The translations under genes were made by a program, and so were the position numbers. The notes under the pieces were generated by a model, which saw nothing but the letters and a program-made list of their open reading frames with translations, was not told the origin of the DNA and did no database searches. Positions 26,914 to 51,055 of a DNA stretch of 64,000 nucleotides are shown one piece after another. Position 1 is the first letter of the stretch, and each line of letters starts with the position of its first letter. Source of the stretch: Verrucomicrobiota bacterium (GTDB lineage Bacteria; Verrucomicrobiota; Verrucomicrobiia; Opitutales; JABDGR01); assembly GCA_048497935.1 (NCBI GenBank), contig JBEHYY010000001.1:129977-193976 (forward strand), written 5' to 3'.

Positions 26914-27026
26914 GAGGGACCCAGGAAGGAATGGAAAGGAAAGGATCCAGTCAAGAAATTTGCTCTCGTGATTTTTAAAATGCGAGTTAGATATATCATG
27001 CTTTCAATTATATTTTCATTATCTCC

Positions 27027-27650: not shown

Positions 27651-27861
27651 TATTCACTTTTTATTAATTTTACTTGGCCACCCTGTGTTCAGATTCATAA
27701 GTAAAGTAGTTTATTATACAAGTTGCTCGACAACAATTACATATAATTCGTCGTGAAAAATGCATGGCCGTATCAAATATGCTTGTCAATTTGCGATAAT
27801 TGACAAATCATGGGTGGCAGTAAATCTATGACACCGCCCCAATCCCCAGATATATAATATC

Positions 27862-28221: not shown

Positions 28222-28277
28222 TTTTTTACGCCACGTCAGGTGCGCAACCCCTTGACGAAGGGGGCTGCGGCAATTTT

Positions 28278-29327: not shown

Positions 29328-29360
29328 GGCGTTAAATTAATGCCGGTATGTGAAATCAAT

Positions 29361-29897: not shown

Positions 29898-29982
29898 GCA
29901 TGCCTAATTAATGAATTTCCCCTATTTATCAACCTTGCAAAAATCATTCCAAGTTCGCTTCTGATATGGTAAGCCTGACCTT

Positions 29983-30804: not shown

Positions 30805-30822
30805 GCAAACCACTGTTTCTCA

Positions 30823-31566
30823 ATGCAGAGCAATCCAGAGCCATCCTACGGCCGATTAGACGACCAATCCCATGCTGGATCAGGGGAATTGGGCATCGTC
30901 TTCCTTCACCATGATATAAACGAGGCCGTGCAGGTCAATTTGCAGAGCATTCGCCGGAGTAACCCTGAAGCAAAAATAGTTACCATGAGCGCTGGTGCTG
31001 CACTTCCCGAAGGCTATTCCTTGGAGGCAACCCCGGAAATCAGAAAATTCCACCTTGGCAGCAAGACCACCGGGGCGGATTGGTTGTTATGCTCGTGGTT
31101 TTCCCAGCGTAAAGAACATTGTCGAAAATGGTGGATTGTCGAATGGGATGTCTTTTGCTTGATTTCCGTTCGGCATTTTTATGCCCCAGTTTGGCATTTT
31201 CCTTTCGTGGCTTCGAGCGTGCGGTTGCGCCATCGCGAAGCGGAATGGTTCTGGTTCAAGGATATTAAATCTCTGCCCGAGGCCTGCCGGCCCTACGCCA
31301 TGGGCACGGTGCCATTTCTATATTTGTTATCTGAAGAAGCGCTTGCGCGGATTTGTTCAAATTATCTGGAAAATCCAATTATAGCCGGGAACTCTGAGTT
31401 GCGGTTCACAACGGTGGCCAATATGTGCGGTTATCCGCCTTGCGGATTTAGCCCCCCTGGGGATCAAATCGGCTGCAATCCATGGATGGTCTTGCCCAAG
31501 CATAAGAGCATTTTGCACCCGGTAAAACGCCCCATGGTGAGTAGCTTGCCGGAGCGCCCCGCTTAA
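30823..31566 (+). CDS. Hypothetical, probable GT-A-like protein (DUF3405-like)
   Basis: WWIVEWDV (DxD-like), ELRFTTVA, terminal HPVK. Confidence 0.6.
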   Translation: MQSNPEPSYGRLDDQSHAGSGELGIVFLHHDINEAVQVNLQSIRRSNPEAKIVTMSAGAALPEGYSLEATPEIRKFHLGSKTTGADWLLCSWFSQRKEHCRKWWIVEWDVFCLISVRHFYAPVWHFPFVASSVRLRHREAEWFWFKDIKSLPEACRPYAMGTVPFLYLLSEEALARICSNYLENPIIAGNSELRFTTVANMCGYPPCGFSPPGDQIGCNPWMVLPKHKSILHPVKRPMVSSLPERPA

Positions 31567-32243
31567 TCACGCGTCGGCACCGATCGCGGGCCCACATGCT
31601 TCAGCCAATTGAAATGCGGGTTGTCGAGCATCAGGCCCGGTAAATGCGCATACTTCAGGCCCGCCTTGTAAGCGGCGTAATTGAAGCTCAACTGATCACG
31701 ACGTGAGCCTTCCATGATCTCTCGGTGCCAGATCTCATTGAATTGCTCAACCAACTGAGTGTGCCTGCGGAACAGGACTGAGCATACGGCAAAGCCGTTG
31801 TTGAGCGGATAACCTTCCTGAAAATATTTTCGCATTTGCCGATCGATGGTTTCGAGCGAATCCAGGCTCTGCCTCGCGCATGTTCTGCCCTCTTGATAAA
31901 GGCAATTGCGGTAACGGTGCTTAAACACGGCAAGATCGTGCTCACCCAAATACGCTTCGACCCATTGGGGCAACGGCAGGTTGGATTTGACTTCCATGCT
32001 GCCATCGATCCAGAGGCTGTACTGCGCTTCCGGAAAATAGCGATGCGGCAGGATTTTGTGCACTTTAGCATTGCGGCATGGATCCGAAAATTTCTGAAAT
32101 ATCGGCCGGACTTCCCAACCGGATGCGGGTTGGGCTTCCTCCAGAAAAGCAATAAAGTCAGCCTGACCTCTCCATTGACTGGGAACTGGCCGCAGGGGAT
32201 CGTAGCCCTTGGTGATTGCTGTATAGACGACGAAGTTTTTCAT
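31563..32243 (-). CDS. DUF616 (TOD1/MUCI70-like) glycosyltransferase
   Basis: VVYTAITKGYD, KILPHRYF, SLWIDGS, RDQLSFNY; ATGA-coupled to upstream gene. Confidence 0.88.
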   Translation of the reverse strand: MKNFVVYTAITKGYDPLRPVPSQWRGQADFIAFLEEAQPASGWEVRPIFQKFSDPCRNAKVHKILPHRYFPEAQYSLWIDGSMEVKSNLPLPQWVEAYLGEHDLAVFKHRYRNCLYQEGRTCARQSLDSLETIDRQMRKYFQEGYPLNNGFAVCSVLFRRHTQLVEQFNEIWHREIMEGSRRDQLSFNYAAYKAGLKYAHLPGLMLDNPHFNWLKHVGPRSVPTRD

Positions 32244-33115
32244 AACGATTTTAGCAGCGCTTCGTATTTTTTCACAATCATCGTAATATGAAAATCCGCT
32301 GCCCGTCGGAGGCAATTGTCTCGCAATAGATTGTAGAGCGCATCGTCGCTTTGCAAGGCTGCGACCCATTGACTGCAGTCCTCCACGGTTGAAAAAATAG
32401 TGCAATCCGGTCCCAGCTCACGATACGCCGGCTCATCGCTCGAGATGGAAGGGATGCCAAAGCCCATGCTGTTGATCAGCTTGATGCCGGAGTTCACCGT
32501 CACATGAAAGCCCAGCACTTCCTTGGCCAGCCGGTCTTTGACCGTCGCGGACAAATGGGATTGGGCCGGCACCCTCCGCAAGTGCGGATGGTCGCCGACA
32601 TGCCGCAAGTTAAGGCTGATGCCGGTTTTGCGAAAAACTTGAATGATGGTCTCTTGCGACAGGCCATCGTCGCGATATATGTCGCAGTCAATATTCTCCA
32701 AAGGCGGCAGCCAATGGCGGCAGCCCAGCCAGGTCGGGCGGCGAAGCAACGCATCGTTGGGCGTGCCTTCAAAATTGCAGTGATGGTGGTGAATGACCTC
32801 CACCCGGCCCAAGTCATTAAAACGGCGGCGAACAAATTCGGTGCTGGCCAGATAAACCTCAACCCCTTTTTTCGGGGGGTGGAGATCAATGATGTCCCAG
32901 ACGACTTTCCCTCTTTGGGAAAGGGCTTCCAGAACACCCGGGCCCAGGACGGGTTTTACGCACAAAAATGCGGAATAGCGGCTGGGAAGGTTGCCGACAT
33001 TCAGATCTTCCAGCAAATAATCGCAACCCAATCGCGTGGCGATATCCAGGCAGCGCACCTGGGTGCTGGAAGGGTGTTTGGCGTTGCCCACAAAGAGTAC
33101 ATGCTTGAGATCCAT
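32240..33115 (-). CDS. Putative GT-B glycosyltransferase-like protein
   Basis: VVWDIID, KLINSMGFGIPSISSDEPAYRE resembling GT4 C-terminal motif. Confidence 0.6.
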   Translation of the reverse strand: MDLKHVLFVGNAKHPSSTQVRCLDIATRLGCDYLLEDLNVGNLPSRYSAFLCVKPVLGPGVLEALSQRGKVVWDIIDLHPPKKGVEVYLASTEFVRRRFNDLGRVEVIHHHHCNFEGTPNDALLRRPTWLGCRHWLPPLENIDCDIYRDDGLSQETIIQVFRKTGISLNLRHVGDHPHLRRVPAQSHLSATVKDRLAKEVLGFHVTVNSGIKLINSMGFGIPSISSDEPAYRELGPDCTIFSTVEDCSQWVAALQSDDALYNLLRDNCLRRAADFHITMIVKKYEALLKSL

Positions 33116-33411
33116 GGTGTGTGGCAATGAGATGTGTGAGGCTATTGGCCCTCCGGTCGATGCTAAGGCTTAGGGTGTGATATGGGACGGTCAAGTTCAA
33201 GATATTAGATGCATATCACTGTCCTAGCTATTTTTTGCTCTATGATTTAGCATTTTAAAATAATAATTCCCATGCGATATAGTCTATGCTTCATGATAAA
33301 AACTCAAAACCTTACCTAATTGATTATCTTCCGTTGACAAGTTCTTCTCGTTGGTAAAAATCAGCTTAACGCATTGAATTTTTCCATTAAAAACGCCCAA
33401 CCCTAACTCTC

Positions 33412-33882
33412 ATGAAAATTATTCGCGCACTGCTTCTCGCTATTGGGTTATTCGGAATTACTAGTCCCGCTTTTGGGATCACAATTTGCTGGTCTGGCGT
33501 TTCAGCAAATGATCCTAGCGTTACCGGCTCTGGATCCACTTGGGCCGTAGGTAATTTTTCCGGCCCCACGCAATCAGCAGATGGGACGGCGTGTACAGCA
33601 GATATTGCCTGTCAAGTTACATATTTCTATTTTACGGGACATGTTTCCCAATATGTTGTACAGGCATGGTGCCAATCCCCATATTACCACGATTACACCG
33701 AAATTTTCAATTCAATGTGGGGAAATGAAATTGATGGTTTTTCATATCATATCACGGGCATTGCTGCCCCTTTATCCGGCTGGTGCTCGGAAACAGGTGA
33801 TGCTACTTTTTATGACAGCAGCAATGCACAACTTGGCTCGATTCATCATTATCTAGACGGGTATCTTGATGCTGAGAACTAG
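33412..33882 (+). CDS. Small secreted beta-rich protein, module copy 1
   Basis: Signal peptide ..TSPAFG; 5 Cys; similar to 39114-39620. Confidence 0.75.
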   Translation: MKIIRALLLAIGLFGITSPAFGITICWSGVSANDPSVTGSGSTWAVGNFSGPTQSADGTACTADIACQVTYFYFTGHVSQYVVQAWCQSPYYHDYTEIFNSMWGNEIDGFSYHITGIAAPLSGWCSETGDATFYDSSNAQLGSIHHYLDGYLDAEN

Positions 33883-33906
33883 GCTGTGATTCATGAAACA
33901 GATACC

Positions 33907-36261
33907 CTAGGGGCGATTTATTGGGATTTTCATAGCCTTCTTTAAGTTGTTTTCAATAATCAGCAGATTTTGTGGATTTTGAATCATCCTAGTTAAATTA
34001 TCGTGCTGGCTGGCGGGTAAGTTGGCGGCGTCAAGCGCAGCTTGCGCGGCACTGGGGTTAGTCGGCACCCAAGCGGAAAGCGCACCAATCAAAGCATTCA
34101 TCCTGGCGTTGCTTTCGCTTACGGTGACGGCCAAAGCAAAAGCTCCTGCGGGGTCACTAGTAGATTGCCCACGCTGCACAACTTCGATAATGGCTGCATC
34201 GCGCTCCGGGCCTGCCGGAAGGGTTGAAACCCATTGTACGGAGGCTGGCATATCTTGTGCCACCCAATTACGGGCCAATTCAGTGGCTGCTGATACCCGG
34301 GCAGCTCCCGCCGGTAACGAAGCCAAAGCTTGGGCTGCTTGTGATGGATCAGTTTTACTCAAGACGGGGATATTACCCGCGACCGATGCCGACATGGCGC
34401 TATCACGCGTCGCCCCGTTGGGCAAGGATTCCGCCCAGGCATAGGCTGCTTGGCCATCCGATTTGGCCCAAGCCGCAGCGACCAACTGCGCCACCGTCGG
34501 GCCAAGATAAGGATCAGAGGCGAGACTTTGCGCGTAAGCCGCCGCCCCAGTAGGATTTGAGGAAGCAAACGCACCGATAACATTTTGCAGGACCTGCTTT
34601 CGGGTAACATCCGGAGTGCCTTCAGGCAGATTTCGCACCCAAGTCAGGGCGGACTGAATGTCCTTGGCTGTCATCTGGCTGGCCAACAGTAAAACCATGC
34701 TGTCCCGGTTCGAACTGGGGGACATCTCTGCCACATAGGCAGATGCCGTTAAAGGGTCCGACTGGATAAATTGCGGCAAAACTTTGTTCACCGCTGAATT
34801 CAAAGAACTGCCAGCTAAGTTGCCGTACACCCAGGACAAAGCTGAGGCAGCATCTGTTTTAGCCCAGGTGGCAAGCACCTGCTGAATATAATTATTACGT
34901 TGGTTATCGTCATCAACGTGCACGGCAACAGCCATGGCTGCTGCCGGGTCACTTTTGCTCATAACAGCAAGAACTTGAGCAACCGCCTTTGTATGAGCCG
35001 TCCCGGTAGTATTCTGGTCCAGCCATGCTAATGCGGAATTAGGGTCGGTGTTAGCCCAAATAGCGGACAGCATACCGACGAGATTGTTACGTGAAAGACC
35101 AGCTGGCAGCGCAGCTACAATATCAGCGGCGGCATGCAAGTCTTGCGTGGCGAGTTTACTAATGCTCAGGGCGATGGCTTTATCCCGCTCGACAGCAAAG
35201 GGCAGGGATAGGGCTGCCTGCAGAGCAGCCTTGGGGTCTAATGCCGCCCAACTGCTAAAAAGGCTTTGGGCCGCCTCCAACAAGCCAGCTCCAGGCGGCA
35301 AGTCGTGTAACGCCGCAAAGGCTGTCGTAGGATCCTTCTTGCTCCATTTGAGGAACAGGTCTTTATAAGCTGCGGCGGTCCGTTGGCTGGGCGGCAGGTT
35401 GCGCAATGCCGCAAAGGCCCGGGCTGGGTCGCTATTAGCCAAGGCGCCGAAAATCGTGTATAGGATCTTGCGGCGGATTTCTGCGCTGTCAATTTGATCC
35501 AAGGCCGCAAAGGCAGCAATCGGGTCGAGGCCGGCCCAACGTTTAAACAGCACCTCCAAAAGGTTGGCTCCGCCTTGACCGGAGGAAAGGCTTTTGACTG
35601 CGGCGACTGCGCCAAGGGGGTCGGCGCCCTGCACCCAAGCAGTCAGCACAGCGTCAATGGCCGCTGTGCGAAAGGCAGCATTGCCGATAGCCAAAGCAGA
35701 ATCCAAGGCCAGCTTCGGGTTGATGCTCGCCCAAACGCCCAGCACGTTCTTGAGCATCGTCGGGTCGCCATCGCGCACCGAGCTGGTCATGGCGTAGCCA
35801 AAAGCGCTTTGCGGATCTGCAGTCGTCCATTTAGCGAAGGCCAAGTCCCTGACGTGATTGCGGAGCGCTTCTTCTGGGCAAGTGCGGACTTGGTCAAGCA
35901 AGTTAGCCAGTTGCGCTACTGGAGTTTTCTCGATCAGTGAGACTACGGCCAGCAAGCGCGCCGAGCCGGCATACTTCTTTATAATCTCAGCCAAGGCACT
36001 CTTGGGATCCCACGCCACATTCTTGGGCAAGGCTGCCGTACTGCCGGGGATCACTGCAGGCGGCCGTATATAAATCTCGGCCTTGGCCTGCGTCGAAGAG
36101 GACGCTACGGGTATGAAGTGAAAGCCCAAATTGCGGCCTAAAACAAATGCTCCCGCCAATACCAAAGTACCCAAGATATAGCCCACCCCTAGCTGCCAGC
36201 CGGGCGATTTCCGCTGGAGTACCGGGTTGCTTGTTGGAATGTCTGGTGGGGTACGATTCAT
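33907..36261 (-). CDS. Membrane-anchored alpha-solenoid repeat protein, type A copy 1
   Basis: N-terminal TM; many W-x3-DP-xAA-x2-W/A..LP repeats. Confidence 0.85.
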   Translation of the reverse strand: MNRTPPDIPTSNPVLQRKSPGWQLGVGYILGTLVLAGAFVLGRNLGFHFIPVASSSTQAKAEIYIRPPAVIPGSTAALPKNVAWDPKSALAEIIKKYAGSARLLAVVSLIEKTPVAQLANLLDQVRTCPEEALRNHVRDLAFAKWTTADPQSAFGYAMTSSVRDGDPTMLKNVLGVWASINPKLALDSALAIGNAAFRTAAIDAVLTAWVQGADPLGAVAAVKSLSSGQGGANLLEVLFKRWAGLDPIAAFAALDQIDSAEIRRKILYTIFGALANSDPARAFAALRNLPPSQRTAAAYKDLFLKWSKKDPTTAFAALHDLPPGAGLLEAAQSLFSSWAALDPKAALQAALSLPFAVERDKAIALSISKLATQDLHAAADIVAALPAGLSRNNLVGMLSAIWANTDPNSALAWLDQNTTGTAHTKAVAQVLAVMSKSDPAAAMAVAVHVDDDNQRNNYIQQVLATWAKTDAASALSWVYGNLAGSSLNSAVNKVLPQFIQSDPLTASAYVAEMSPSSNRDSMVLLLASQMTAKDIQSALTWVRNLPEGTPDVTRKQVLQNVIGAFASSNPTGAAAYAQSLASDPYLGPTVAQLVAAAWAKSDGQAAYAWAESLPNGATRDSAMSASVAGNIPVLSKTDPSQAAQALASLPAGAARVSAATELARNWVAQDMPASVQWVSTLPAGPERDAAIIEVVQRGQSTSDPAGAFALAVTVSESNARMNALIGALSAWVPTNPSAAQAALDAANLPASQHDNLTRMIQNPQNLLIIENNLKKAMKIPINRP

Positions 36262-36286
36262 GGATCAAATAGTCGGCTTTATGGTG

Positions 36287-38647
36287 TTATGGCCCATTCC
36301 CCTTTTGCGCACCGTTATTACTATCAGGCTGGCCGGAGGGTTGATTTGATTCGGAGGAATTATTTCCACCGCTCGTGCTACTTTCTTGCTGCAAAGGAAC
36401 GGTAACCGGCCCGGAACCATTGGGAATTACTGTCACTGTATGGCCGGTCATCATCATGAGCCCGCCAGCACTTTTTTGTATCGAATACGCCTGTTGCAAC
36501 TGGTTGAAACGCGCGGCAGCGGCTGATTTCAATTCACCGGATGGTAAATCCGCCACCCATTGACCGGCTGCATCCGGATCGTGACTCATCCAAGTTGTAA
36601 CCAGTAAACTTGCCACGTTTTCAGTGTTGTAAGAACCTGCCGGCAATGCGGCAACGGCATGGGCTGCAGCGCCAGGATCAGTCTGACTCCAAGTATTTAC
36701 AATCGAAGCGAATGAGATATGATTATCATTAGTTTCTAATTGTTTAACCGCCTCATCCCAAGCAGCCGCCGGATCTGCTTGAGACATATTGAAAAGGGCT
36801 GCGCTAACTGCGACCGATTGGGTATACCCTTGCGGCAGTGTTTTCGCCCAATCGAATGCAGCTTGGTAATCACTTTTGGCCCAAACATCCGCTACGCCGC
36901 TGGCAATCGTATTAAAATCCGAGGATGACGTAGGGAGAGTCTCGGCATAATAAGCTGCTCCTGCGGGATCAATAGCCGCCCAGTTTTTGACAACGATGTT
37001 AGCCATCGCATCATGCCGTGCTTGATCCGAAATATCCGATGGCAGATTTTTCACCCACTCCAAGGCCACACGAATATCCTGTTGGGCCAGTGCCGAGGCC
37101 AAATTAACAATTGCAGAATCACGGAGTGGGCCATCCGGCAACCGCATGACATAGCCGATTTCCGCTTGGGGGTCGGCTTCGATGACAATCGGCAGCACTG
37201 TGGAAAGGGCGAGTTCGCGTATATCGCCGGTTAGATTGTCCTGCACCCACGCCAAGGCTGCCGCCGCATCAGCCTTGGCCCAATTGCCTACGGCAGTTTG
37301 CAGATACTTGTCATGCAGTGCGCCCGTGGGCAGTTGGGCGATGTAGGCCATGGCGGCCGTCGCATCTGTCTTACCCAGCTTATTCAGCACGTCGCCCACT
37401 GCCTCGTCGTGGACGTTGCCGGAGACGTTTTTGTCTAACCAAGCCAGCGCGTTGGCCGGGTCGGCATCGGCCCACGTTCCGGATATGTATTGTTTGATGA
37501 GATTATTACGGTCGGCTCCCGGTGGCAGGCTAACGATAAAGTCGGCTGCATGTTCTGGGTCTTGCATTGCGTAATTGGCCAAGACCATCGAAAATGCGTG
37601 TTCGCGATCCTGGGCCGCCGGCAGGGTCTGGGCCGCAGACAGCGCCGCGGCGGGATCTGATTCCGACCAGGCGTTAAAAGCGGCCTCAATGGCCGTTTGC
37701 CGGAAGGTCCCGGCCGACATGCCTTGTAGGGCAGCAAAAGCCGCGTTGGGATCCAGCCGCGCCCAGGTTTGAAAAATCTCGTGATAGGCGAGCGGTAACT
37801 GTTGATTAGAGGGCAATTCGCGTAGCAGGTTGAAGGCCTTAATCGGGTCGCTTAAGGCGAGATTGCTCAGGATGATGCCTCGGGCAATAGTGCGCGTATC
37901 CTCGCTTTCAATCTTGTCGACATTGGCCCAAGCGGCGAGGGGATCTACCTCCGACCAACGTTGAAAAAACCACTTCATTTCGTTGGGGATGGTTGATCCA
38001 GGAGGGAGTGCCTTCAAGGCCGCCAATCCCTCCAGCGCATCATCCCGGCGCACCCAATTGTTGAATATCTTGGTTACGGCATCCTGCCGAAATGCCGCAT
38101 CGTCCAGCTTCAGGGCGGCAGCCAATGCGGCATGCGGGTCGTTTCGGGCCCACATGGCAAAGATGTTGGAAATAGGGGTGTTCTCCGGCTTGCCCTCGCG
38201 CATAGTTGGAAGCGCAAAAGCCAAAGCCGCCTGCGGGTCGTCTGCCACCCATTTGGCATAGGCAAAATCCGTGACTGCGCGGCGCACTGCCGAATCCGGG
38301 CAACTGGCCGCCAATTGAATTAGACTGGCTAATTCATTCACGGGCGTGTTTTCAATCAGTTGGGCTACAGCCAAGATACGCTCACCGTTGGCATATTTCC
38401 TCAAAATCTCCCCCAAAACGCTCTTGGGATTCCACTTTGGAATCAACAGGCTGGATACGGGCTTGGCGACCGGAGTGTGGCCCTGCACCTTGGCCTTGGC
38501 CTCCGCCCGACCATATCCCCATCCCACGGCCAATGCCGCCAAGATTGCCAAAACAGCCACCCCATATCGAATAACGCACAATTGGGTTGGCGGCATCGGC
38601 GGAAGCCGTCCTGAACGATCGTTTGTCCCCTGCTGCGCTGCGGTCAT
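36287..38647 (-). CDS. Membrane-anchored alpha-solenoid repeat protein, type B copy 1
   Basis: N-terminal TM (VGWGYGR); same repeat class. Confidence 0.85.
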   Translation of the reverse strand: MTAAQQGTNDRSGRLPPMPPTQLCVIRYGVAVLAILAALAVGWGYGRAEAKAKVQGHTPVAKPVSSLLIPKWNPKSVLGEILRKYANGERILAVAQLIENTPVNELASLIQLAASCPDSAVRRAVTDFAYAKWVADDPQAALAFALPTMREGKPENTPISNIFAMWARNDPHAALAAALKLDDAAFRQDAVTKIFNNWVRRDDALEGLAALKALPPGSTIPNEMKWFFQRWSEVDPLAAWANVDKIESEDTRTIARGIILSNLALSDPIKAFNLLRELPSNQQLPLAYHEIFQTWARLDPNAAFAALQGMSAGTFRQTAIEAAFNAWSESDPAAALSAAQTLPAAQDREHAFSMVLANYAMQDPEHAADFIVSLPPGADRNNLIKQYISGTWADADPANALAWLDKNVSGNVHDEAVGDVLNKLGKTDATAAMAYIAQLPTGALHDKYLQTAVGNWAKADAAAALAWVQDNLTGDIRELALSTVLPIVIEADPQAEIGYVMRLPDGPLRDSAIVNLASALAQQDIRVALEWVKNLPSDISDQARHDAMANIVVKNWAAIDPAGAAYYAETLPTSSSDFNTIASGVADVWAKSDYQAAFDWAKTLPQGYTQSVAVSAALFNMSQADPAAAWDEAVKQLETNDNHISFASIVNTWSQTDPGAAAHAVAALPAGSYNTENVASLLVTTWMSHDPDAAGQWVADLPSGELKSAAAARFNQLQQAYSIQKSAGGLMMMTGHTVTVIPNGSGPVTVPLQQESSTSGGNNSSESNQPSGQPDSNNGAQKGNGP

Positions 38648-38677
38648 GGGATGGAGGGGGTTAAGCCTAGCCCAGAC

Positions 38678-38710
38678 AAATTGTAACTAATCAAACCAAA
38701 CGTCAATACC
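38678..38710 (-). promoter_or_regulatory. Conserved promoter-like motif upstream of solenoid pair 1
   Basis: Minus strand GGTATTGACGTTTG-..-TACAATTT, conserved at 44614-44646. Confidence 0.55.
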
Positions 38711-39113
38711 TGTATCACTTCGCCATAGCCCACCCGGCGGCAAATATTGCACCCGCCGACACTGCGAACGAAATAACGCGCCGTCGGGTTTCCGGTAGAA
38801 GCTCCCTATACCGTCTTTTGTATCATGGCGTGTTTTCTTTATACATGAGCCGAGGTAAAGCCGCACTAAATTAGCCCGCGCCCACAAGGGTCGGAAGCTG
38901 ATGGTCATTCGTTATCAAAATTCATCCATAACGGCACGACTTATGCTACCATAAAATATAAAGTTTTATTTCTGTGTCTTTTTTGCCATTGACGGACTGC
39001 TAGGATTAGACGATTATCTGCGGTACTAAAAGGGATTTGTTTTTAAACCCACCCACTCAAGAATGCCTGAACAACCTTGGATCTCTTACTCAAAACACCA
39101 ACCCCTTATCCTT

Positions 39114-39620
39114 ATGAAACTCTTTCGTCCGTTCTTAATGGTCGTCGCCATTTTTGGATTTGTTAGTCCGGCACACGCCTACCTAAACTGCTGCTATCTC
39201 GATGACAATCCGGGGACTAGCATAGATACATCCGGAACTTCCGCTTTCACTGCCAGTAATACATCCGCCACAAATGATATTTTTGCAACTACCGCCACGG
39301 GCCCCACGTCCCAGCGAAATACTTCAGATACATATATTACAATTGCCGACTATTCCATTGATGTGTATCAAGATCCGCAGCGGGAGCGCTGGTTTTGGGA
39401 TGGCTCCTCCACCCTGATTATAAATGACACTATCACCGTTGATCATGATGATTTTTTTGGCTACGAAACTGATTTGTTTCATGTTGATGTAATAAGCCTG
39501 GATCCCACTTCTTATTATGCATATGAGAACTACGAGTGGGGGACCTATTACGACGGCAATCCTTCCGATGCGACATATTTTCATTACGTTGATGTTGGCT
39601 TTGTAAACTGCGGTCCGTGA
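39114..39620 (+). CDS. Small secreted beta-rich protein, module copy 2
   Basis: Signal peptide MKLFRPFLMVVAIFGFVSPAHA from ATG 39114. Confidence 0.75.
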   Translation: MKLFRPFLMVVAIFGFVSPAHAYLNCCYLDDNPGTSIDTSGTSAFTASNTSATNDIFATTATGPTSQRNTSDTYITIADYSIDVYQDPQRERWFWDGSSTLIINDTITVDHDDFFGYETDLFHVDVISLDPTSYYAYENYEWGTYYDGNPSDATYFHYVDVGFVNCGP

Positions 39621-39776
39621 TGGTTTTTTATTCTTATGGAACAACGGATCAGAAGACCGTGATATGTCACTGGGCTGCGGGGAGATCCTCTATTAAGTGA
39701 ATTTTCGCCAGATAAGTGAAACGACTTATCCAAATTTCAAGCGTTCCCTCGCGGAAGTTTTTATGCCAAGCTTAGA

Positions 39777-42203
39777 TTAAGGATGCTGGGATGGGGGTTT
39801 CCTCCTCGCATCGTTTCGCGCCTGGATGCTTTTTGCATTGCTTATTTGGCTCTGAACCGAAATGCGCTGCCCATAGGTGAGCGGGGCTGATTGAAGGACG
39901 GTGGTGGCCGCCACAGGGTCATACACTGCCCACCCAGTAAGCGCCTGCCCAATAGTGATATAGCGATTATCGTCGGTACTCGAAGTGAGCGCTAGAGCAT
40001 AGGCGGCAGCCCCGTTGTTTAGGGCTTGGGTGGGAATGACTCTTTGCATGACACTATCACGCTCAGCCCCGACCGGAATGGACTCCACAAATTTCGCGGC
40101 CGCCGAGGCATCCTGTTGCGCCAAATTGTCTGCGATGATAGGTGTGGCAAAGGAACGGGAATTGCCCGGCGGGAGTGTCATAACAGCCTGCGCGGCTGCC
40201 ACAGGGTTGGTTTTGCTCAAAAAAACAGCGATCTCAGCCTGGGCCGCCTTGGTCGCCGGCGTCCCTGCCGGTAAGTTATTGAGGGCGTAATTCCAAGCTT
40301 CCACCGCATCGATATGAGAAAAGCCCGCCACTGCTGCGGCCATTGCACTATCCCGGGTTGGTCCGGGGGGGAGGGATTCCGTCCAAGCCAAGGCGGCTTT
40401 GCTGTCACTTTTAGCCCAATCGTCTGCGACGCCGATGACTGCTGCACGCGCATTTGGGTCCGTTATCAGACTTTGGGCATAAGCAGCTGCTGAGGAGGGG
40501 TCTTTCACCGCAATGGTGTCAATTATTTGCCTCCATGCTTTCTGTCGGACAGAGTCGGGAACGTCCTGCGCGAGCCCTTGGGCCCAGTTGATTGCCGATT
40601 GGAAATCTTGCTTCGCTAGCGAAGAAGCTACGTGCAGGATTAAATCGTCGCGGCTGGAACTGGCCGGCATCTGGGCTATGTAGACTGAGGCATCTACAGG
40701 ATTTGCATTGACCATCTGCCCCAATAGACTGGCTAAGGCCGAATCATAGATGTCGCCGGTCAGGTTTGTATTGGCCCACGCCAAGGCGGAAGCAGCGTCC
40801 CCTTTGGCCCAGCCATTTAACGTTCCCATAACATATTTGTCCCGGAGGGCGCTTTCCGGCAGCCGGGAAATATAGGCCAAAGCATCAAGGGGATGTTCTT
40901 GGGCCATTTGGCCAAGAATTGAGTAGACGGAAGTGTCATGCATTGTGCCGTCGGCATTTTGATCAAGCCACGCTAGAGTGGCGGCGGGGTCAGAATTGGC
41001 CCAGACTGACGCTAAAACGCCAATCAGATGGTCGCGAGACACTCCCTGCGCCATGTCGGCGATATAGTCAGCAGCAGCTTGATGGTCTTTAATCACGTAG
41101 GCCCGCACGCTTTCGGCGAGGGCCTGGTTCCGTTCCCCATTGGGCGGCAGCGATTGGGCCGCCTGAAGCGCCGCCAGCGGGTCGGTGGCTGCCCAGCTTT
41201 TAAAAACACTCTGGATGGCGGCCAATCGACCTGCTCCTGCTGGAATACTCTGTAGAGCTGTAAAAGCTTCCACCGGGTTTTGCGCGCCCCACTTTTGAAA
41301 CAAATTGCCATAGGTGGCCGGTGCTTGCTGGCCTGCGGGCAAACCAGCGAGGGTCTTCAGCGCCTCCGCCGGATTGCTATTGGCCAAGTAGCCGATGATG
41401 GTGTTTTGGAGACTTTGACGCGTGCTTGGGTTATCCACCTGGTTCAAGGCCGCCAAGGCGGCGGCGGGGTCCAGGCGCCCCCAATGGTCAAAAACCATGC
41501 GGAGGAAATCCGTTTTGCCTTGGCCGGGGGGCAGGCGTTTGGCGGCCGCGACGGCACCGAGGGGGTCTTTGCCTTCCGCCCAGGCAGCCAGCACGGTATT
41601 CACCCCCACGATGCGGAAGGAAGCATTTTTCAGGGCAAAAGCGGCGGCCAGAGCGGCCTTGGGGTCGGTTGCCGCCCAAAGAGTGAAGACACTATTCAGC
41701 AAAGCTGGATCCCCGCTGCGGAGGGAAATGATAGTCGCGTAGGCCAGGGCGGCCTGTGGGTCGGCGGCGGTCCATTTCGCCAAAATCATATCATTGATAG
41801 CTTGCCGGGCTAATTCCCTCGGGCAATTGCGCATCTGATCCAGTAGGCTGGCTAGTTGTGCCACGGGGGTTTTCTCGACTAGTTTGGCAATCGCCAGCAA
41901 ACGCTCCGTGCCGGCATATTGCCGCATGATTTTTCCCAAGGCGCTCTGTGGATCCCAAGCTACGTTGTGCGGTGTGGCGGCGGTGCTGCCCGGTGCGAAC
42001 GCTGGTGGACGCGCGTAGCCCACCTTGGCGGTGGGGGAAAATGGTGTCTTTGGCCTGGCGTGAAAACCCAAGCTCCATCCTAAAATGAAAACCCCCGCAT
42101 AGGCTAGCACCGCGATCATGACCGGACCACTTCGCCAACCTCTCGACGAGGGTATTCCCGGCTTAGGCGCGCAATCGCGAGAATGTTGCGATTCAGATGG
42201 CAT
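39777..42203 (-). CDS. Membrane-anchored alpha-solenoid repeat protein, type A copy 2
   Basis: Colinear paralog of 33907-36261 (NVAWDP..EKTPVAQLA..AKWTAADPQ). Confidence 0.85.
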   Translation of the reverse strand: MPSESQHSRDCAPKPGIPSSRGWRSGPVMIAVLAYAGVFILGWSLGFHARPKTPFSPTAKVGYARPPAFAPGSTAATPHNVAWDPQSALGKIMRQYAGTERLLAIAKLVEKTPVAQLASLLDQMRNCPRELARQAINDMILAKWTAADPQAALAYATIISLRSGDPALLNSVFTLWAATDPKAALAAAFALKNASFRIVGVNTVLAAWAEGKDPLGAVAAAKRLPPGQGKTDFLRMVFDHWGRLDPAAALAALNQVDNPSTRQSLQNTIIGYLANSNPAEALKTLAGLPAGQQAPATYGNLFQKWGAQNPVEAFTALQSIPAGAGRLAAIQSVFKSWAATDPLAALQAAQSLPPNGERNQALAESVRAYVIKDHQAAADYIADMAQGVSRDHLIGVLASVWANSDPAATLAWLDQNADGTMHDTSVYSILGQMAQEHPLDALAYISRLPESALRDKYVMGTLNGWAKGDAASALAWANTNLTGDIYDSALASLLGQMVNANPVDASVYIAQMPASSSRDDLILHVASSLAKQDFQSAINWAQGLAQDVPDSVRQKAWRQIIDTIAVKDPSSAAAYAQSLITDPNARAAVIGVADDWAKSDSKAALAWTESLPPGPTRDSAMAAAVAGFSHIDAVEAWNYALNNLPAGTPATKAAQAEIAVFLSKTNPVAAAQAVMTLPPGNSRSFATPIIADNLAQQDASAAAKFVESIPVGAERDSVMQRVIPTQALNNGAAAYALALTSSTDDNRYITIGQALTGWAVYDPVAATTVLQSAPLTYGQRISVQSQISNAKSIQARNDARRKPPSQHP

Positions 42204-42239
42204 AAGATCCAATTGTTGGCAGAAATGCGCTTATTGACG

Positions 42240-44585
42240 TTATCTACTTGTATCCAATCCGGACGCCGGGGCTAAAGGGACCGCGATAAGCTGACGCGGG
42301 GCCTCATCATCTCTTGGGACACGCATCCCCACCCCCGACTGGGAGAGACCAGGTGAAATGGTGATTGATTGATTATGGACATTCATGGAGATCCCGCCGC
42401 TGTTTTTAAAAATAGCATTGGCTTGTTGCATTTGGTTGTACCGCGCCAAGGCCGCGTCATGCAATGATCCTGGCGGAAGATGCTTAACCCACTCGGTCGC
42501 AATTGCGGGATCGCTCGACATCCACTCAGTTATTAGGAAATTGGCGGTATTGGTGGAGACCTGCCCAAGTGTATCCTCGGGAAGTGAAGCCATCGCTTGG
42601 GCCGAAGCGGCGGGATCAGTCCGGCTCCAAGCATATATAATGCCTTGAAATTGATTAGTATAGCCTTCGGTCCGCCAGTATTCGATGGCATTGGCCCATG
42701 CGCCAGGGCCATCGGACACCGCCATGCCGACCAAGGCTGCACCAACCGTGCTTTCCCGTGCTTCCCCAGGCAAAGTCTCCGCCCAAGCCAGCGCTTCCTT
42801 CGGGTAGGTTTTCGCCCAGTTTTGAGCTAGATTTCCGGCGAGTGCATTGTAATTTGTATTCTGGTTGTTATCGCGGACGAACGCCGCTGCGCTGGCCGGA
42901 TCGGCTTTGGCCCAGGTATTAATTATGCCCGCTAGGGCATTGCTTCGTGCTGTGCCAGAAACGGTATCAGGAAGATTCCTTACCCAATTAATTGCACCTT
43001 GAATGTCCTCCCTGGCCATTGAAGCCGCCAAGCTCGCAATGGCTTTGTCGCGCGTGGCGCCCATGGCCAACTGACGGACATAGTCCATCGCCGCCATGGG
43101 ATTGGCTTGGACCAACAATGGTAGGACTGCCGCGAAGGCCGTATCTTGCGCATTACCGCTAAGGTTGGCCTGCGCCCAAGCCATGGCGGCGGCAGGGTCT
43201 TGCTTACCCCAGTTCGCGAGGGAATCCTGCAGGTATTTCTCACTCAAAGCACTTGGGGCCATTTGGACGATGTAGGCCATGGCCGCCTCAGGATCCAAAT
43301 TGACGATTTTGCCTAAAACCTCACTCACGGCAGCATCGTGGGTGGAACCGGAGGTGTTTTTGTCGAGCCAAGTTAAGGCAGCAGATGGGTCGGCATCAGC
43401 CCATAAGCCTGCCACCAGGCGATTGACCAGATTGTTGCGAACGGTTCCCGGCGGCAAAGATGCCAGATATTCGCCCGCAGCTTGGGAGTCTTGAAGAGCA
43501 AAGTTGGGCAGGGCTAATTCGATGGCCTTGTCCCGGTCGGGGCCGGGAGGAAATTGTTGCGCGGCACGAAGGGCCGCCAGGGGATCAACTTCCGCCCAGC
43601 CGTTAAAAGCACCATCGACCGCTGCCGTCCGGGTGCTGCCTACAGGCAAATCCCGCAGGGCGGCATAAGCCGCGTCGTGGTCTTGCCGCGACCACGCCTG
43701 AAATACATGGAGGTAAATTTGCGGTGATTTTTGATTGGTAGGCAGGCCATTAAGCAACCTGACAGCCTCAATCGGGTCGCTGTAAGCCAAATTACTTAAA
43801 ATGATGCCCTGGACGGTACTGCGCATCTCGGCGTTGGCAATTTCGCCCACATGGACCCAGGCCGCCAGCGGGTCCACTTCCGACCAGCGTTGATATAGCC
43901 ACCGTTCCTCGTTGGCAATGGCGGTGTTGGGCGGCAGGCTCTTGAGCGCAGCCAAGGCGCCAAGCGGGTCTTCGCCTTGCACCCATTGGTTCAGGACTTT
44001 GGTGACGGCGTCCTGCCGGAAGGCGGCGTTGTCGAGCTTGAGCGCGGCGCCCAAGGCGGTTTGGGGGTCAATCCGCGCCCACTTGCCAAGGATGCCCGAA
44101 ATCGGCGAGCGATCGGGCGTGGTTGTTCGCATCGTCGGTAGGGCATTGGCCAGGGCGCCTGGCGGGTCAGCCGCCACCCATTTAGCATAGGCAAAATCAA
44201 CAAGATGCTGGCGCACGGCGGCATCGGGGCATTGAGCGGCTTGTTGGATGAGTGCTCCAAGCTCAGAGACGGGGGTGGCCTCCACCCATTGTGCCACAGC
44301 TAAAATGCGATCACCACCAGAGTATTTGTGCAAGATATCTGCCAGTATGTTTTTAACGCCGCGATTGCTGGTTGGCAGATCGAAAACGGTCTTTGAGTCG
44401 GATGAAGCATACAATGTGCTTTCAGTCTTACTCGGAATCATATAACGGCCATATCCCCAGCCGGCGGCAAAAACCGCCAAAGCGGTTAAAATGGCTGCCG
44501 TGCGATGCACGGCAAGGCGTCGATTTGAGGGTGCCCGATTGGGCTGCCCCATGGGATCGATTGCTCCCTGTTGAGCTTGGCTCAT
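42240..44585 (-). CDS. Membrane-anchored alpha-solenoid repeat protein, type B copy 2
   Basis: Colinear paralog of 36287-38647 (GWGYGR, RWSEVDPLAAW, WADADP). Confidence 0.85.
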   Translation of the reverse strand: MSQAQQGAIDPMGQPNRAPSNRRLAVHRTAAILTALAVFAAGWGYGRYMIPSKTESTLYASSDSKTVFDLPTSNRGVKNILADILHKYSGGDRILAVAQWVEATPVSELGALIQQAAQCPDAAVRQHLVDFAYAKWVAADPPGALANALPTMRTTTPDRSPISGILGKWARIDPQTALGAALKLDNAAFRQDAVTKVLNQWVQGEDPLGALAALKSLPPNTAIANEERWLYQRWSEVDPLAAWVHVGEIANAEMRSTVQGIILSNLAYSDPIEAVRLLNGLPTNQKSPQIYLHVFQAWSRQDHDAAYAALRDLPVGSTRTAAVDGAFNGWAEVDPLAALRAAQQFPPGPDRDKAIELALPNFALQDSQAAGEYLASLPPGTVRNNLVNRLVAGLWADADPSAALTWLDKNTSGSTHDAAVSEVLGKIVNLDPEAAMAYIVQMAPSALSEKYLQDSLANWGKQDPAAAMAWAQANLSGNAQDTAFAAVLPLLVQANPMAAMDYVRQLAMGATRDKAIASLAASMAREDIQGAINWVRNLPDTVSGTARSNALAGIINTWAKADPASAAAFVRDNNQNTNYNALAGNLAQNWAKTYPKEALAWAETLPGEARESTVGAALVGMAVSDGPGAWANAIEYWRTEGYTNQFQGIIYAWSRTDPAASAQAMASLPEDTLGQVSTNTANFLITEWMSSDPAIATEWVKHLPPGSLHDAALARYNQMQQANAIFKNSGGISMNVHNQSITISPGLSQSGVGMRVPRDDEAPRQLIAVPLAPASGLDTSR

Positions 44586-44613
44586 GGGATGATAGGGTGA
44601 ATTTAACTTAAAT

Positions 44614-44646
44614 AAATTATAGCCGCTCAAAACAAACGTCAATACC
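44614..44646 (-). promoter_or_regulatory. Conserved promoter-like motif upstream of solenoid pair 2
   Basis: Minus strand GGTATTGACGTTTG-..-TATAATTT. Confidence 0.55.
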
Positions 44647-44651
44647 AGAGC

Positions 44652-45350
44652 TCACGGAATGGGTTGGTCCTTTTGTTCTCGACGTTGCCACAATATTGCC
44701 TGTTTCTCCAAAGGCCAGCACCGGTAATGGGTGACCAGTAGCTTAATTGCGTCTGGTTGGCGCGTTTGGGCTATTCGACTATGGCCCTTTTCGGAGAAAT
44801 ACTTTTCGCTTCCAAAGGGGTAACATGAAGTGAAAATGTAATTCACTTTTTGCTCAACGCAGGCATGTAAAACCTCAAGCGGATTGTGCATATGCTCCAA
44901 TACCTCACCAAAAATGGCCAGGTCCCTGTTCGCGACTAAGGCAGCGTAATCAGTGGGGATGTGGTATGCCAAACCCGCTAGATTTTCTCTTCTAAAACGT
45001 GCCAGCGCGAATTGTATGGCCTCAGGATCAATATCGTAAATGGCGACATCCGCTCCCAACCGTGAAAAATACAGACCGTAATCGGCGACTAGACACCCGT
45101 AATCCAGAATTTTCAAATCGGCGATTTGCCCACCTAAAACAACGATCCGTTGATGGATACGGGCTGCTTCATGATAGCGAGTATAGTCCATCATGGTGCG
45201 TATAATTTTAGGATTTATGCCATACTCGCGGCACCGCTCAATTCGATCTTCTTGGGGAATATTCGCTAATTCATGAATCAACTCCTTCGATACCGAGTAA
45301 TAAGCGGCCAACATACCGGCACGGTCCTCAGATGATTTTCCTTCGTGCAT
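44652..45350 (-). CDS. Class I SAM-dependent methyltransferase
   Basis: ILDYGC, YDID, EVLEHM motifs. Confidence 0.85.
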   Translation of the reverse strand: MHEGKSSEDRAGMLAAYYSVSKELIHELANIPQEDRIERCREYGINPKIIRTMMDYTRYHEAARIHQRIVVLGGQIADLKILDYGCLVADYGLYFSRLGADVAIYDIDPEAIQFALARFRRENLAGLAYHIPTDYAALVANRDLAIFGEVLEHMHNPLEVLHACVEQKVNYIFTSCYPFGSEKYFSEKGHSRIAQTRQPDAIKLLVTHYRCWPLEKQAILWQRREQKDQPIP

Positions 45351-45512
45351 AAGTTTCTATTTGAAAATCTGAACATATATTCAAACAGATCCCAATATTT
45401 AAACGCGATGAAGAATCCGCGAACGAGCTAGCGAGCAGATTATTTGCTGTTTTCGGCAATAGGATAGTACACCGCCCTAGGAGGTCGATCGCCCCCACTA
45501 GCAACAAAAACT

Positions 45513-45533
45513 TGTAACCCCTTTTTGTAACCC
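45513..45533. promoter_or_regulatory. Tandem putative integrase arm sites (right end)
   Basis: TGTAACCC-CTTTT-TGTAACCC. Confidence 0.6.
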
Positions 45534-45671: not shown

Positions 45672-45710
45672 TTAGAAAACTGCTGCTCTATCCGCCTGAG
45701 CTACGCCCCC
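45672..45710 (-). repeat. att core, right copy = displaced 5' half of tRNA-Arg
   Basis: 39-bp identity to 24561-24599, ending at the anticodon loop. Confidence 0.95.
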
Positions 45711-45759: not shown

Positions 45760-46152
45760 GGAAATCTCCGGGTAGGTTGAAATATGTGGAGTTTTGCCCG
45801 CCGATCAAAAAACGATGGTTTATTCATCCGATCCCGAAGAAACGCGTGCGGCAAATTTCACGCCGAATGCCGCGATTACAAAGTTATCCCCGGGCATCTA
45901 GGGTGAATATCTACCGTTAAATGACGTTAAAATGACCTTCGTGTCGATTAGTTACCTTTGCCACGAAATAATTTCATTTAGTTTTCAAAAACATCTTGCG
46001 ACATGGAAAGTGAATTGTTCTAACCGGGCATAGCCAAGTGTATTAAACCCTTTTCCGACCGTTAGTCCATGGATGCCTACAGTGGAGTTTTACGCTGATT
46101 CTCAGAACCCTGCGTCCAACTACCCCTTCCCCAACCTTAACTCCATCCACTT

Positions 46153-48186
46153 ATGCACGCGTTCTCCCGCCTCCGCCATTCCCCGCAACAATCGCTTCCC
46201 TTGCGCCTTTCCCTCTGGGTGGCGTGTTTGGCTGGCGCCTTATTGCTGGGGAGCCCCACCCTCCATGCCGCGGACCAAACCGTGACCGGCAACCTGACGG
46301 TGACCGCCAATGCGACGGTCGCCAATGATTTCGACGCGGGCTGGAGCTGGGTGACGCTTACCGGCACGGAAAAGCCGGGCAACAGCGGCACGTGGCTGCA
46401 CTTCAACCTGGACCTGAGCGACATCACCACCGTCGCCAGTGCCACGACCTATGTCATCCCCGGCCTCAACATTGGCGTGACCAATGGGACCATCGCCAAC
46501 GTGGTCAACACGGGCTACAACCCGAACACCTCCTGGACCTGGCAGGAAGGGCTGACCAACGTGGTCGGCGGAGTACTGTACTTCAATGGCACCCCGGCGA
46601 CGCAAATGAGCCTGTCCAACCTCGGCGTGCTCACCGTTTACAACGCCTCCAATGCCAGCAACACCCTGACCCTCGACCCAGCCAACCAGAAGATCGTGTT
46701 TAGCAGCGGCGTGACGCTCGCTGGCAATGCCACCACCCTTTCCATCTACTCGGGCACCACGGGCATCGCCCTGGGCACCTTGGCCACGGCCAATGGCACC
46801 GGCGCGGTCGCCATGGGCAATGGCAGCATTGCCTCGGGCACCAACGCCACAGCCATGGTGGGCGGCACTGCCTCGGCGGCCAACGCGATGGCTTTTGGCC
46901 TGAGCACCACGGCCAATGCCACCGGCGCCGTCGCTCTAGGCAACGGCAGTATCGCTTCCGGGGCCAATGCCACAGCCATCGGCCCTGTCGCCACGGCCAA
47001 CGCCACCGGAGCCATCGCCATCGGTGACCATACCGTGGCCTCGGTCTATGACTCCGTGGTGGTCGGCCATTACAATGACAGCAGCCTTACGGGCAGCACC
47101 TCCTCCTGGGTGGGCAAGGATCCCGCGTTCGTCGTTGGCATCGGCAACAGCGGCACTCCGGCCAACGGTTTGGTGATCCTTAATAATGGCGATATTTATT
47201 CGGGCACCAGTGCCACCTATGACAGCGTAAGTGGCGCGCCGTACGGCACAGGAAATTATTTTGCCTGGATCCCAACCACCGGAACTTTTGTGGCCGCCAC
47301 CAATATTCAAAGCGGTTCCAATGTGAGTTACAACGGACAAGTGGTCCTCGGCGATCACGTGAAAAGTATCGGTATTGGTTCGGTGGCCATTGGCGCCGGG
47401 GCTTGGTCTGTTAACACGGGCGCGGTCGCAGAAGGATATGTGGTGAATGCTTTTGCACTCGGCTCCGTGGCATTGGGAGAATTGAGCGACGCGCATACAC
47501 AAGGCTCAATCGCCATGGGCTATAACAGCGGCGCCATCGGCGGGTATGGTTCCGTTGCCTTGGGCATGAATTCTCTGGCCTGGAGTGATGGTGATTTTGC
47601 CTCTGGCAATTATAGCTCAAGCACCGGGGCTGGCTCAGTGGGCATTGGCAATACTTCCACGTCCAACGGCATCGGCGCAATTGCCATGGGCAACCTGACC
47701 AACGCCACCGGCAATGGCACGCTCGCCCTGGGCAACACTGTCACCGCCACCGGCAATGGCACTATTGTCATGGGTAATGTCAGCACCTCAACAGCCAATG
47801 GCGCTTTAGCCTTGGGCAACAATATCACCATCACGACCAATGCGACCGTCAACGGCACCGGCTCGGTCGCACTGGGCAACAACCTGACGGTGACCACAGA
47901 CCACGCCTTCGTCGCCGGGCAATGGGCTGGCGTGAGCAACGGCAGCGGCAACTTCACCGTCGGCGGCAGCGGCCCAACCTCTCCCCTCCTCGTTTTGGGC
48001 AATGGCACCAGCTCGGGCAACCTTGGCACGGCCTTCAAAGTGCTCAAAAACGGCGATGCCACCGTCTATGGCAATGCCACCATCGGCACCAGCACCACCA
48101 ACGCGACTCTTTCCGGCAATGTCACGCTAACCAAACGCCAAGGGGACATTATCATGGGCAGCTTTGGCAACGGCGGCGGAGACTAA
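46153..48186 (+). CDS. Secreted fibre/adhesin with YadA-head (Hep_Hag) repeats, no autotransporter anchor
   Basis: Signal peptide; 14-aa A/S-x-A-x-G repeats; GNG..AFKVLKNG motifs; C-terminus KRQGDIIMGSFGNGGGD. Confidence 0.85.
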   Translation: MHAFSRLRHSPQQSLPLRLSLWVACLAGALLLGSPTLHAADQTVTGNLTVTANATVANDFDAGWSWVTLTGTEKPGNSGTWLHFNLDLSDITTVASATTYVIPGLNIGVTNGTIANVVNTGYNPNTSWTWQEGLTNVVGGVLYFNGTPATQMSLSNLGVLTVYNASNASNTLTLDPANQKIVFSSGVTLAGNATTLSIYSGTTGIALGTLATANGTGAVAMGNGSIASGTNATAMVGGTASAANAMAFGLSTTANATGAVALGNGSIASGANATAIGPVATANATGAIAIGDHTVASVYDSVVVGHYNDSSLTGSTSSWVGKDPAFVVGIGNSGTPANGLVILNNGDIYSGTSATYDSVSGAPYGTGNYFAWIPTTGTFVAATNIQSGSNVSYNGQVVLGDHVKSIGIGSVAIGAGAWSVNTGAVAEGYVVNAFALGSVALGELSDAHTQGSIAMGYNSGAIGGYGSVALGMNSLAWSDGDFASGNYSSSTGAGSVGIGNTSTSNGIGAIAMGNLTNATGNGTLALGNTVTATGNGTIVMGNVSTSTANGALALGNNITITTNATVNGTGSVALGNNLTVTTDHAFVAGQWAGVSNGSGNFTVGGSGPTSPLLVLGNGTSSGNLGTAFKVLKNGDATVYGNATIGTSTTNATLSGNVTLTKRQGDIIMGSFGNGGGD

Positions 48187-50201: not shown

Positions 50202-50254
50202 CCCGCCGCGTCCGGTCGCGTCCACGGTGACTTAAACTTCAACTCCTGTTGCAA

Positions 50255-51046: not shown

Positions 51047-51055
51047 GATTTTTTC

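Follow-up and report, generated by a model that had tools for sequence, protein, structure and literature searches.

Extracytoplasmic function (ECF) sigma factors with a fused transmembrane (TM) segment and an extracytoplasmic C-terminal part include IutY of Pseudomonas putida and members of groups ECF48, ECF52, and ECF53, such as SCO4117, and membrane-bound sigma/anti-sigma fusions that are released by proteolysis are known from IutY and ECF52, according to the parts of PMC8999054 that treat such proteins. Here, we analyzed a duplicated gene pair from a Verrucomicrobiota bacterium (Opitutales; GenBank assembly GCA_048497935.1) whose long products, A and B, have relatives fused to sigma factor domains. 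The window, i.e., the whole stretch of DNA that was analyzed, comprises 64,000 nucleotides (nt) of contig JBEHYY010000001.1 (positions 129,977 to 193,976 of the forward strand), and the locus occupies positions 33412 to 44646 of the window. On balance, we lean slightly toward reading A and B as periplasmic binding modules, either sensors or scaffolds, that form a B-A pair and are related to sigma-fused sensors. A preliminary description had proposed that the pair serves a fast-evolving exported protein encoded by a small neighboring open reading frame (ORF).

Two modules encode pairs of predicted membrane-anchored solenoids

A unit composed of a small plus-strand ORF (S), two long minus-strand ORFs (A and B), and a promoter-like box is present twice in the window. 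The first copy comprises S1 (33412-33882, plus strand), a 156-amino-acid (aa) orphan ORF with a signal-peptide-like N terminus (MKIIRALLLAIGLFGITSPAFG); A1 (33907-36261, minus strand; 784 aa), a predicted inner-membrane-anchored HEAT-like solenoid; B1 (36287-38647, minus strand; 786 aa), a paralog of A1 and the upstream gene in operon 1; and the promoter-like box of operon 1 (38678-38710, minus strand; TTGACG ... TACAAT). The second copy comprises S2 (39063-39620, plus strand), a 185-aa orphan ORF whose likely start is M18 at 39114, where a signal-peptide-like sequence begins (MKLFRPFLMVVAIFGFVSPAHA); A2 (39777-42212, minus strand), a predicted 811-aa solenoid; B2 (42240-44642, minus strand), a predicted solenoid of 800 aa when read as an ORF from the TTG at 44642, the start that aligns with B1 being the ATG at 44585; and the box of operon 2 (44614-44646, minus strand; TTGACG ... 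TATAAT). S is convergent with A in both copies, the stop codons being separated by 24 nt in the first and by 156 nt in the second, and a consensus terminator scan returned nothing for either of these S-A intervals.

The long proteins are colinear by BLASTP (E ≤2e-132), with identities of 350/791 (44%) between A1 and A2, 357/748 (48%) between B1 and B2, and 264/678 (39%) between A1 and B1. B and A are separated by 25 to 27 nt in both pairs (25 nt between B1 and A1), a spacing that makes either pair look like a single operon. The box (GGTATTGACGTTTGkTTTGA...TAyAATTT) is identical at 27/33 nt (82%) between operons 1 and 2 and lies ∼45 nt upstream of the B1 and B2 starts alike; in the whole 2.95-Mb assembly, its motif patterns matched these two sites only. 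The hexamers are spaced by ∼15 nt (manual count), and the box is absent from the output of a consensus promoter scan that used 16- to 18-nt spacers, which may be explained by a spacing outside that range. By eye, no conservation of the box was found 5′ of the orthologous pairs at two relatives' loci (L023 and L024). Each operon would be driven by its own sigma-70-like box. The six ORFs, the two boxes, and the colinearity of the A and B copies all match the arrangement given in the preliminary description.

The AlphaFold2 model of A1 (27-row alignment) has a predicted local distance difference test score (pLDDT) of 85.8 and consists of a disordered tail, a TM helix at residues 25 to 48, a disordered linker at residues 49 to 88, and helical repeats with 42 helices across residues 89 to 776. 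In A and B, ∼24 to 45 residues precede the TM helix and are disordered in the model, and the repeat period is 32 residues, with ∼21 repeats per protein. The W-x3-DP repeat reported earlier is real: the pattern W-x(2-4)-D-P-x-x-A gives 10 to 11 regular-expression matches per protein, spaced by 32 or 64 residues, and the recurring positions are W, D-P, L-P-x-G, and R. The A1 model has the architecture of HEAT/ARM-type proteins, in which tandem two-helix repeats of ∼30 to 45 residues form a superhelix, and it resembles solved HEAT solenoids, at low TM-scores. In total, Foldseek returned 174 Protein Data Bank (PDB) matches at E ≤0.001, the best of which are the HEAT solenoids CAND1, SF3B1, importins, and PP2A-A (E of 3e-6 to 1e-4). 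No Pfam model reached its cutoff on A1, A2, B1, or B2, and none of them matched HEAT, ARM, TPR, or Sel1; the sole trace was a subthreshold similarity to ELYS (PF13934; 14.9 to 25.7 bits versus a cutoff of 28.8). An NCBIfam search with the four proteins gave nothing, a sequence search of PDB chains with A1 gave 0 matches, and an atlas look-up of A1 yielded solely unnamed or ELYS-labeled Verrucomicrobiota clusters. Judging from the A1 model and the N-terminal hydrophobic segments, A and B should be membrane-anchored alpha-solenoids that face the periplasm, as had been proposed from their translations.

The B-A pair recurs in related genomes

A profile of A1, A2, B1, and B2 found 33 ORFs in this 2.95-Mb genome (E ≤1e-5), which total ∼22,000 codons by summed length. 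A hydrophobic 19-mer (Kyte-Doolittle score of ≥1.5) is present near the N terminus in 26/33 paralogs, and 22/33 lie within 5 kb of another member (manual count). Public data contain 16,754 cluster representatives at E ≤1e-3 and 1,286 at E ≤1e-30. The subfamily of ∼800 aa (E ≤1e-60) was found in 8/9 further genomes of the same taxonomic family and in none of the 21 genomes that represent other families of the order. Across the phylum, 17 of 121 sampled genomes, this one included, have a match at E ≤1e-20; most of the 17 belong to the same order, with 1 to 3 matches each, and the named relatives are uncultured Opitutales metagenome-assembled genomes. The A/B family is a large, uncurated family of the Verrucomicrobiota, with a great expansion in this Opitutales lineage. 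Although no curated model describes the family, it makes up ∼2% of this genome and has thousands of public relatives.

The history of the two modules was analyzed with a tree of 37 family proteins, to which this genome contributed 10 and 20 relatives' loci the other 27, with none dropped; it was obtained by a quick search, is rooted at the midpoint, and has SH-aLRT support only. Tandem pairs are present at 7 of the 20 loci. A1 and A2 form a clade with the downstream genes of the pairs in genomes G008 and G003 (support, 99), and the four upstream genes (B1, B2, and those of G008 and G003) form another (support, 100). A2 is 59% identical to the downstream gene of the G008 pair and B2 54% identical to the upstream gene, and in both trees A2 and B2 group more closely with the pairs of these two relatives than with A1 and B1. 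The modules are therefore old paralogs and not a recent in-place copy. Of the tandem duplication described earlier, the presence of two copies was upheld and recent copying in place was not. A second, independent pair type, found on contig C8 of this genome and in G001, G003, G004, and G006, shows the same pattern of upstream and downstream clades.

The B-then-A pair thus appears, by its sequence relationships, to be an old conserved unit, and S1 and S2 seem to stand outside it. Either the two modules would have split before the G008 and G003 lineages did, or one of them would have come by transfer. At 44 to 48% protein identity, A and B are past synonymous saturation.

The solenoid is shared with membrane-tethered ECF sigma factors

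Sigma domains were sought in 10 long hits that had been picked for a late start of the match, and Sigma70_r2/r4 was found N-terminal to the solenoid in 6 of these 10. Among the best hits, 14/148 match a sigma profile built in this analysis. Pfam identified two sigma-fused paralogs in this genome (C1:39083-41650 and C16:32860-35466) and two sigma-fused members in G004. In the tree, the G004 fusions are sister to unfused members (L034/L036, support of 100; L040/L035, support of 89), and no separate sigma ORF was found at these unfused loci. Since sigma-fused and sigma-less forms are closely related, the solenoid is probably an extracytoplasmic input or binding domain.

The genome encodes 22 ECF sigma factors of one clade, 385 to 868 aa long and each with a TM segment at about residues 208 to 269, and the solenoid is carried by 2 of these 22. 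With their periplasmic C-terminal parts, the 22 factors constitute a very large membrane-tethered set for a 2.95-Mb genome, which opens the question of how Opitutales use more than 20 such factors per genome. By manual count, 12/33 paralogs lie at most 2 genes from ECF, two-component, or chemotaxis genes. Paralogs adjoin ECF genes on contigs C1, C16, C24, and C2 pairs of an OmpR-type regulator and a histidine kinase on C4 and C8, and a CheW-CheR-CheW-MCP (methyl-accepting chemotaxis protein) set on C21.

A similar arrangement was observed for another domain. A 212-aa TM-anchored protein (G000:C8:14087-14725) is encoded upstream of the C8 solenoid pair, a location that is conserved in G003 and G004. 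At least 5 long ECF sigma factors have the domain of this protein as their C-terminal part, so that stand-alone and sigma-fused forms exist in the same pattern as for the solenoid.

Under the reading toward which we lean, the locus would consist of a two-gene operon, with B ahead of A, in two copies that are old paralogs. Each protein would have a short cytoplasmic tail, one TM helix, a disordered linker, and ∼21 HEAT-like repeats that project into the periplasm. In some family members, the same solenoid would be the C-terminal, periplasmic portion of an ECF sigma factor tethered to the membrane; A and B would be the sigma-less counterparts of such input domains and may act as a sensor or scaffold, working as a B-A pair. 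In the titles and abstracts of the ECF and Verrucomicrobia literature searched, no description of the solenoid family was found. The passages of the ECF reclassification that were consulted (PMC7826278) do not mention Verrucomicrobia, and its supplementary group descriptions may classify the sigma fusions.

Several observations weigh against this reading. A1, A2, B1, and B2 adjoin glycan-modifying enzymes and have no signaling gene alongside. An anti-sigma domain (zf-HC2/RskA-like) is ∼80 residues long, and the cytoplasmic tails of A and B are too short for a known domain of this kind; with ∼24 to 45 disordered residues and no Pfam match, no class I anti-sigma domain was found before the TM helix. 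The structural matches have TM-scores of 0.16 to 0.35 and sequence identities of 9 to 13%, and these low scores therefore indicate a generic solenoid and not a specific relative. The two S ORFs are placed alike in their modules and resemble each other in the 5′ region and the signal peptide, as a functional link between S and A/B would likewise predict. Finally, function is something we infer for every family member, and what suggests that A associates with B is their conserved adjacency.

A narrower version, which we hold to be unlikely, is that the sigma-less B-A pairs are periplasmic co-receptors or decoys that heteromerize with the solenoids of tethered ECF factors or compete with them for ligand. 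If so, the lineage would run an expanded signaling network that uses sensor-only paralogs to tune one-component sigma factors, and tuning modules could also arrive on mobile islands.

The small ORFs adjacent to the pair are orphans

The preliminary description noted that the small genes are far more diverged than A and B, and BLASTP agrees: S1 and S2 align over 26 N-terminal residues only (10 identical; E of 9e-6), and their mature parts are unalignable. At the DNA level, some similarity is retained in the 5′ flank and the signal-peptide codons, and none was found beyond. Both ORFs are far longer than expected by chance in AT-rich DNA such as that around them. An ORF of the length of S1 arose in 2 of 2,000 shuffles of its 779-nt intergenic region and one of the length of S2 in 8 of 2,000 shuffles of its 1,129-nt region; shuffled ORFs that also had a signal-peptide-like start numbered at most 1 in 2,000 for S1 and S2 alike. 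S2 is a called gene in the public protein collection, and S1 is not in the collection. The S ORFs have a GC content of 45%, weak codon-position structure (GC1/2/3 of 0.48/0.50/0.38 for S1), and poor codon scores (−14 and +4). A single-sequence AlphaFold2 model of mature S1 has a pLDDT of 37 and no usable fold. Complex prediction of mature S2 (residues 41 to 185) with the periplasmic part of A2 (residues 85 to 811, 27-row alignment) gave a score of 0.00 and an uncertain S2 fold (pLDDT <50), which is not evidence either way. The best score in an atlas look-up of S2 was 0.76, below noise. No homologs of S1 or S2 were found in a six-frame search of 9 other genomes of the taxonomic family, in a collection of 5.8 billion proteins, or elsewhere in this genome.

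Two rival alternatives were weighed for S1 and S2. One is that they are decaying or nonfunctional relics of an ancestral gene in the duplicated unit and have no present role; their orphan status, atypical codon-position GC, and lack of a confident fold are in line with this. Against it, both frames are intact and longer than chance, both keep a canonical signal peptide, and S2 was called as a gene, and we regard decay as quite unlikely. We take S1 and S2 to be probable genuine secreted proteins that are restricted to this island. The first 40 to 50 residues of the mature proteins (33481-33600 and 39183-39330) contain many Ser, Thr, Gly, and Asn residues, whereas aromatic residues are frequent in the remainder. 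As pure speculation, S1 and S2 could be glycosylation substrates, given the transferases of the island.

The other alternative is the trio proposed in the preliminary description, in which S is a fast-evolving exported protein and A and B are its dedicated periplasmic chaperone, receptor, or immunity factor. The common place and orientation of S1 and S2 in the two modules, their ORF length, their shared signal peptide and 5′ flanking DNA, and the contrast between unalignable mature parts and the 44 to 48% identity kept by A and B all agree with such a trio. The neighborhoods of the solenoid homologs do not. The orthologous pair in G008 (L023) is followed by 245 nt and a convergent paralog and that in G003 (L024) by tRNA-Arg(CCG) and simple repeats, with no S-like gene at either locus. 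Among downstream ORFs of 90 to 260 aa at the 20 relatives' loci, 2/80 are signal-peptide-like, neither of them convincing, which is close to the genome background of 329/7,693; this survey used raw ORFs instead of gene calls and a crude signal-peptide rule, and L027, L028, and L036 offer little downstream sequence, with contig ends close by. The small secreted-looking ORF after the C8 pair is a frame of low complexity, rich in G and P, to which relatives have no counterpart. The predicted consistent small secreted neighbor was thus not seen, and the absence of S homologs, the GC and codon scores of the S ORFs, and the lack of S1 from the gene-called collection also count against the trio. We consider it very unlikely. 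The idea of a cargo and its receptor draws on one island only, and of the earlier interpretation, the parts that concern structure and the island are supported, and the cargo-receptor part found no support in the comparison of genomes.

The modules are cargo of an island integrated at a tRNA gene

A mobile island with glyco-modifying enzymes had been proposed earlier. The analysis supports an integrative island of ∼21 kb at tRNA-Arg, which has glycosyl-, sulfo-, and methyltransferases and of which the entire locus is cargo. The 5′ half (24561-24599) of tRNA-Arg(TCT) (24525-24600, minus strand) is the left copy of a 39-nt direct repeat, whose right copy (45672-45710) is 100% identical and marks the right end of the ∼21.1-kb island. 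The GC content is 0.45 to 0.58 between the repeats and 0.60 to 0.64 outside. Of the hallmarks of a tRNA-integrated island, flanking repeats derived from a tRNA, deviant composition, and a site that varies among relatives are seen here. Next to the tRNA gene, an integrase-like ORF (24685-25371, plus strand; 228 aa) has the N-terminal SAM-like domain only (Phage_int_SAM_3/Int_N), with no catalytic domain found, and is probably truncated. Islands that target tRNA genes usually repeat the 3′ part of the tRNA. Here, the repeat corresponds to nucleotides ∼2 to 40 of tRNA-Arg(TCT), i.e., to the 5′ half and not the 3′ end, an unusual orientation, so that the island supplies the 5′ half of the intact tRNA.

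In G004, the 39-mer recurs 3.9 kb from the orthologous tRNA-Arg (C9:228132-232173, partly in L056), indicating that the site has been used repeatedly, and stray copies were found in two further genomes of the genus, at G001:C102:14689-14727 and G003:C146:3-42. The copies in relatives suggest a hot spot at which integration recurs and the cargo differs. Within the genus, synteny of the right flank is too weak to define an empty site. A second direct repeat of 31 nt (81% identical; ...TTTTTGTAACCC) is located just inside both island ends (24646-24676 and 45503-45533) and may be an arm-type binding site.

Besides the two modules, the island carries genes at 25811-33127 for GT2-like, Sulfotransfer_2, GT25, Sulfotransfer_4, GT2, and TOD1/MUCI70-like proteins and 2 ORFs without a family, as well as an S-adenosylmethionine (SAM)-methyltransferase-like gene (44652-45350, minus strand) directly upstream of the operon 2 promoter box. 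With GT2, GT25, TOD1/MUCI70-like, two sulfotransferase families, and a methyltransferase so close by, A and B might be periplasmic scaffolds on which a surface glycan that the island enzymes produce, sulfated or methylated, is assembled or modified. Periplasmic scaffolds of the TPR type are known from synthase-dependent exopolysaccharide systems (AlgK, BcsC, PelB, and PgaA). The scaffold possibility is kept alive by a 649-aa family member on contig C19, which sits among paralogous glycan enzymes in a second cluster (G000:C19:39253-46953; L063) whose TOD1/MUCI70-like and Sulfotransfer_2 proteins are 49% and 32% identical, respectively, to those of the island; this cluster also has an ABC transporter and a rhamnosyl-O-methyltransferase-like gene by Pfam. 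It is followed by ORFs with N termini that resemble RmlA and RmlB by eye. However, the orthologous pair in G003 adjoins an alpha/beta hydrolase and a SRAP peptidase and not glycan genes, 28/33 paralogs lie outside glycan clusters (manual count), no synthase, polymerase, or outer-membrane exporter was found among the annotated island ORFs, and the island and C19 loci belong to one genome and are therefore not independent. A dedicated role in glycan assembly thus seems rather unlikely for the pair as a whole.

Features around the island were also observed. The conserved left flank is separated from the tRNA by ∼1.8 kb (22756-24519) that has no counterpart in six relatives from the genus; in those relatives in which a single contig matched both, flank and tRNA are ∼20 to 60 nt apart. 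Two overlapping ORFs (487 and 546 aa), neither of which has a Pfam family, are located in the ∼1.8-kb segment. At 46153-50201, there are two adjacent YadA-head-repeat proteins (677 and 655 aa) with a ∼620-nt stretch that is 92% identical (∼46132-46756 versus 48214-48837). Outside the island, 50249-57211 contains a 2,051-aa RHS-repeat protein that has DUF6531 and a transglutaminase-like core; a 265-aa ORF with traces of RHS and TSP3 repeats precedes it.

Comparison with known systems

The A and B proteins share with eukaryotic HEAT solenoids (importin-beta/karyopherins, CAND1, SF3B1, and the PP2A A subunit) an all-alpha superhelix of two-helix repeats; they differ in being membrane anchored, presumably periplasmic, and built from a 32-residue W-x3-DP repeat. 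Like the TPR-type exopolysaccharide scaffolds, they are predicted periplasmic helical-repeat proteins encoded beside glycan-modifying enzymes. In contrast to those scaffolds, they have no TPR or Sel1 match, their neighbors are transferases only, with no synthase seen among the annotated island ORFs, and their predicted anchor is an inner-membrane TM helix instead of a lipid anchor or an outer-membrane porin fusion. The island resembles other tRNA-targeting islands in that its direct repeat matches part of a tRNA exactly, an integrase-like gene lies next to it, and the GC content deviates; unlike the usual ones, its repeat covers the 5′ half of the tRNA, and its integrase ORF keeps the N-terminal domain only.

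The tethered ECF sigma factors are compared last. A1, A2, B1, and B2 differ from them in having no sigma domains, with neither sigma-70 region 2 nor region 4 found by Pfam, and only ∼25 to 45 cytoplasmic residues, and the periplasmic part is a predicted HEAT-like solenoid instead of a FecR-like or carbohydrate-binding domain; proteolytic release is a feature of the known systems. Some paralogs of A and B, by contrast, have the same architecture as tethered ECF factors, namely sigma2-sigma4, one TM helix, and a periplasmic domain, and the periplasmic domain of these fused paralogs is homologous to A and B along its whole length (677 to 730 bits).

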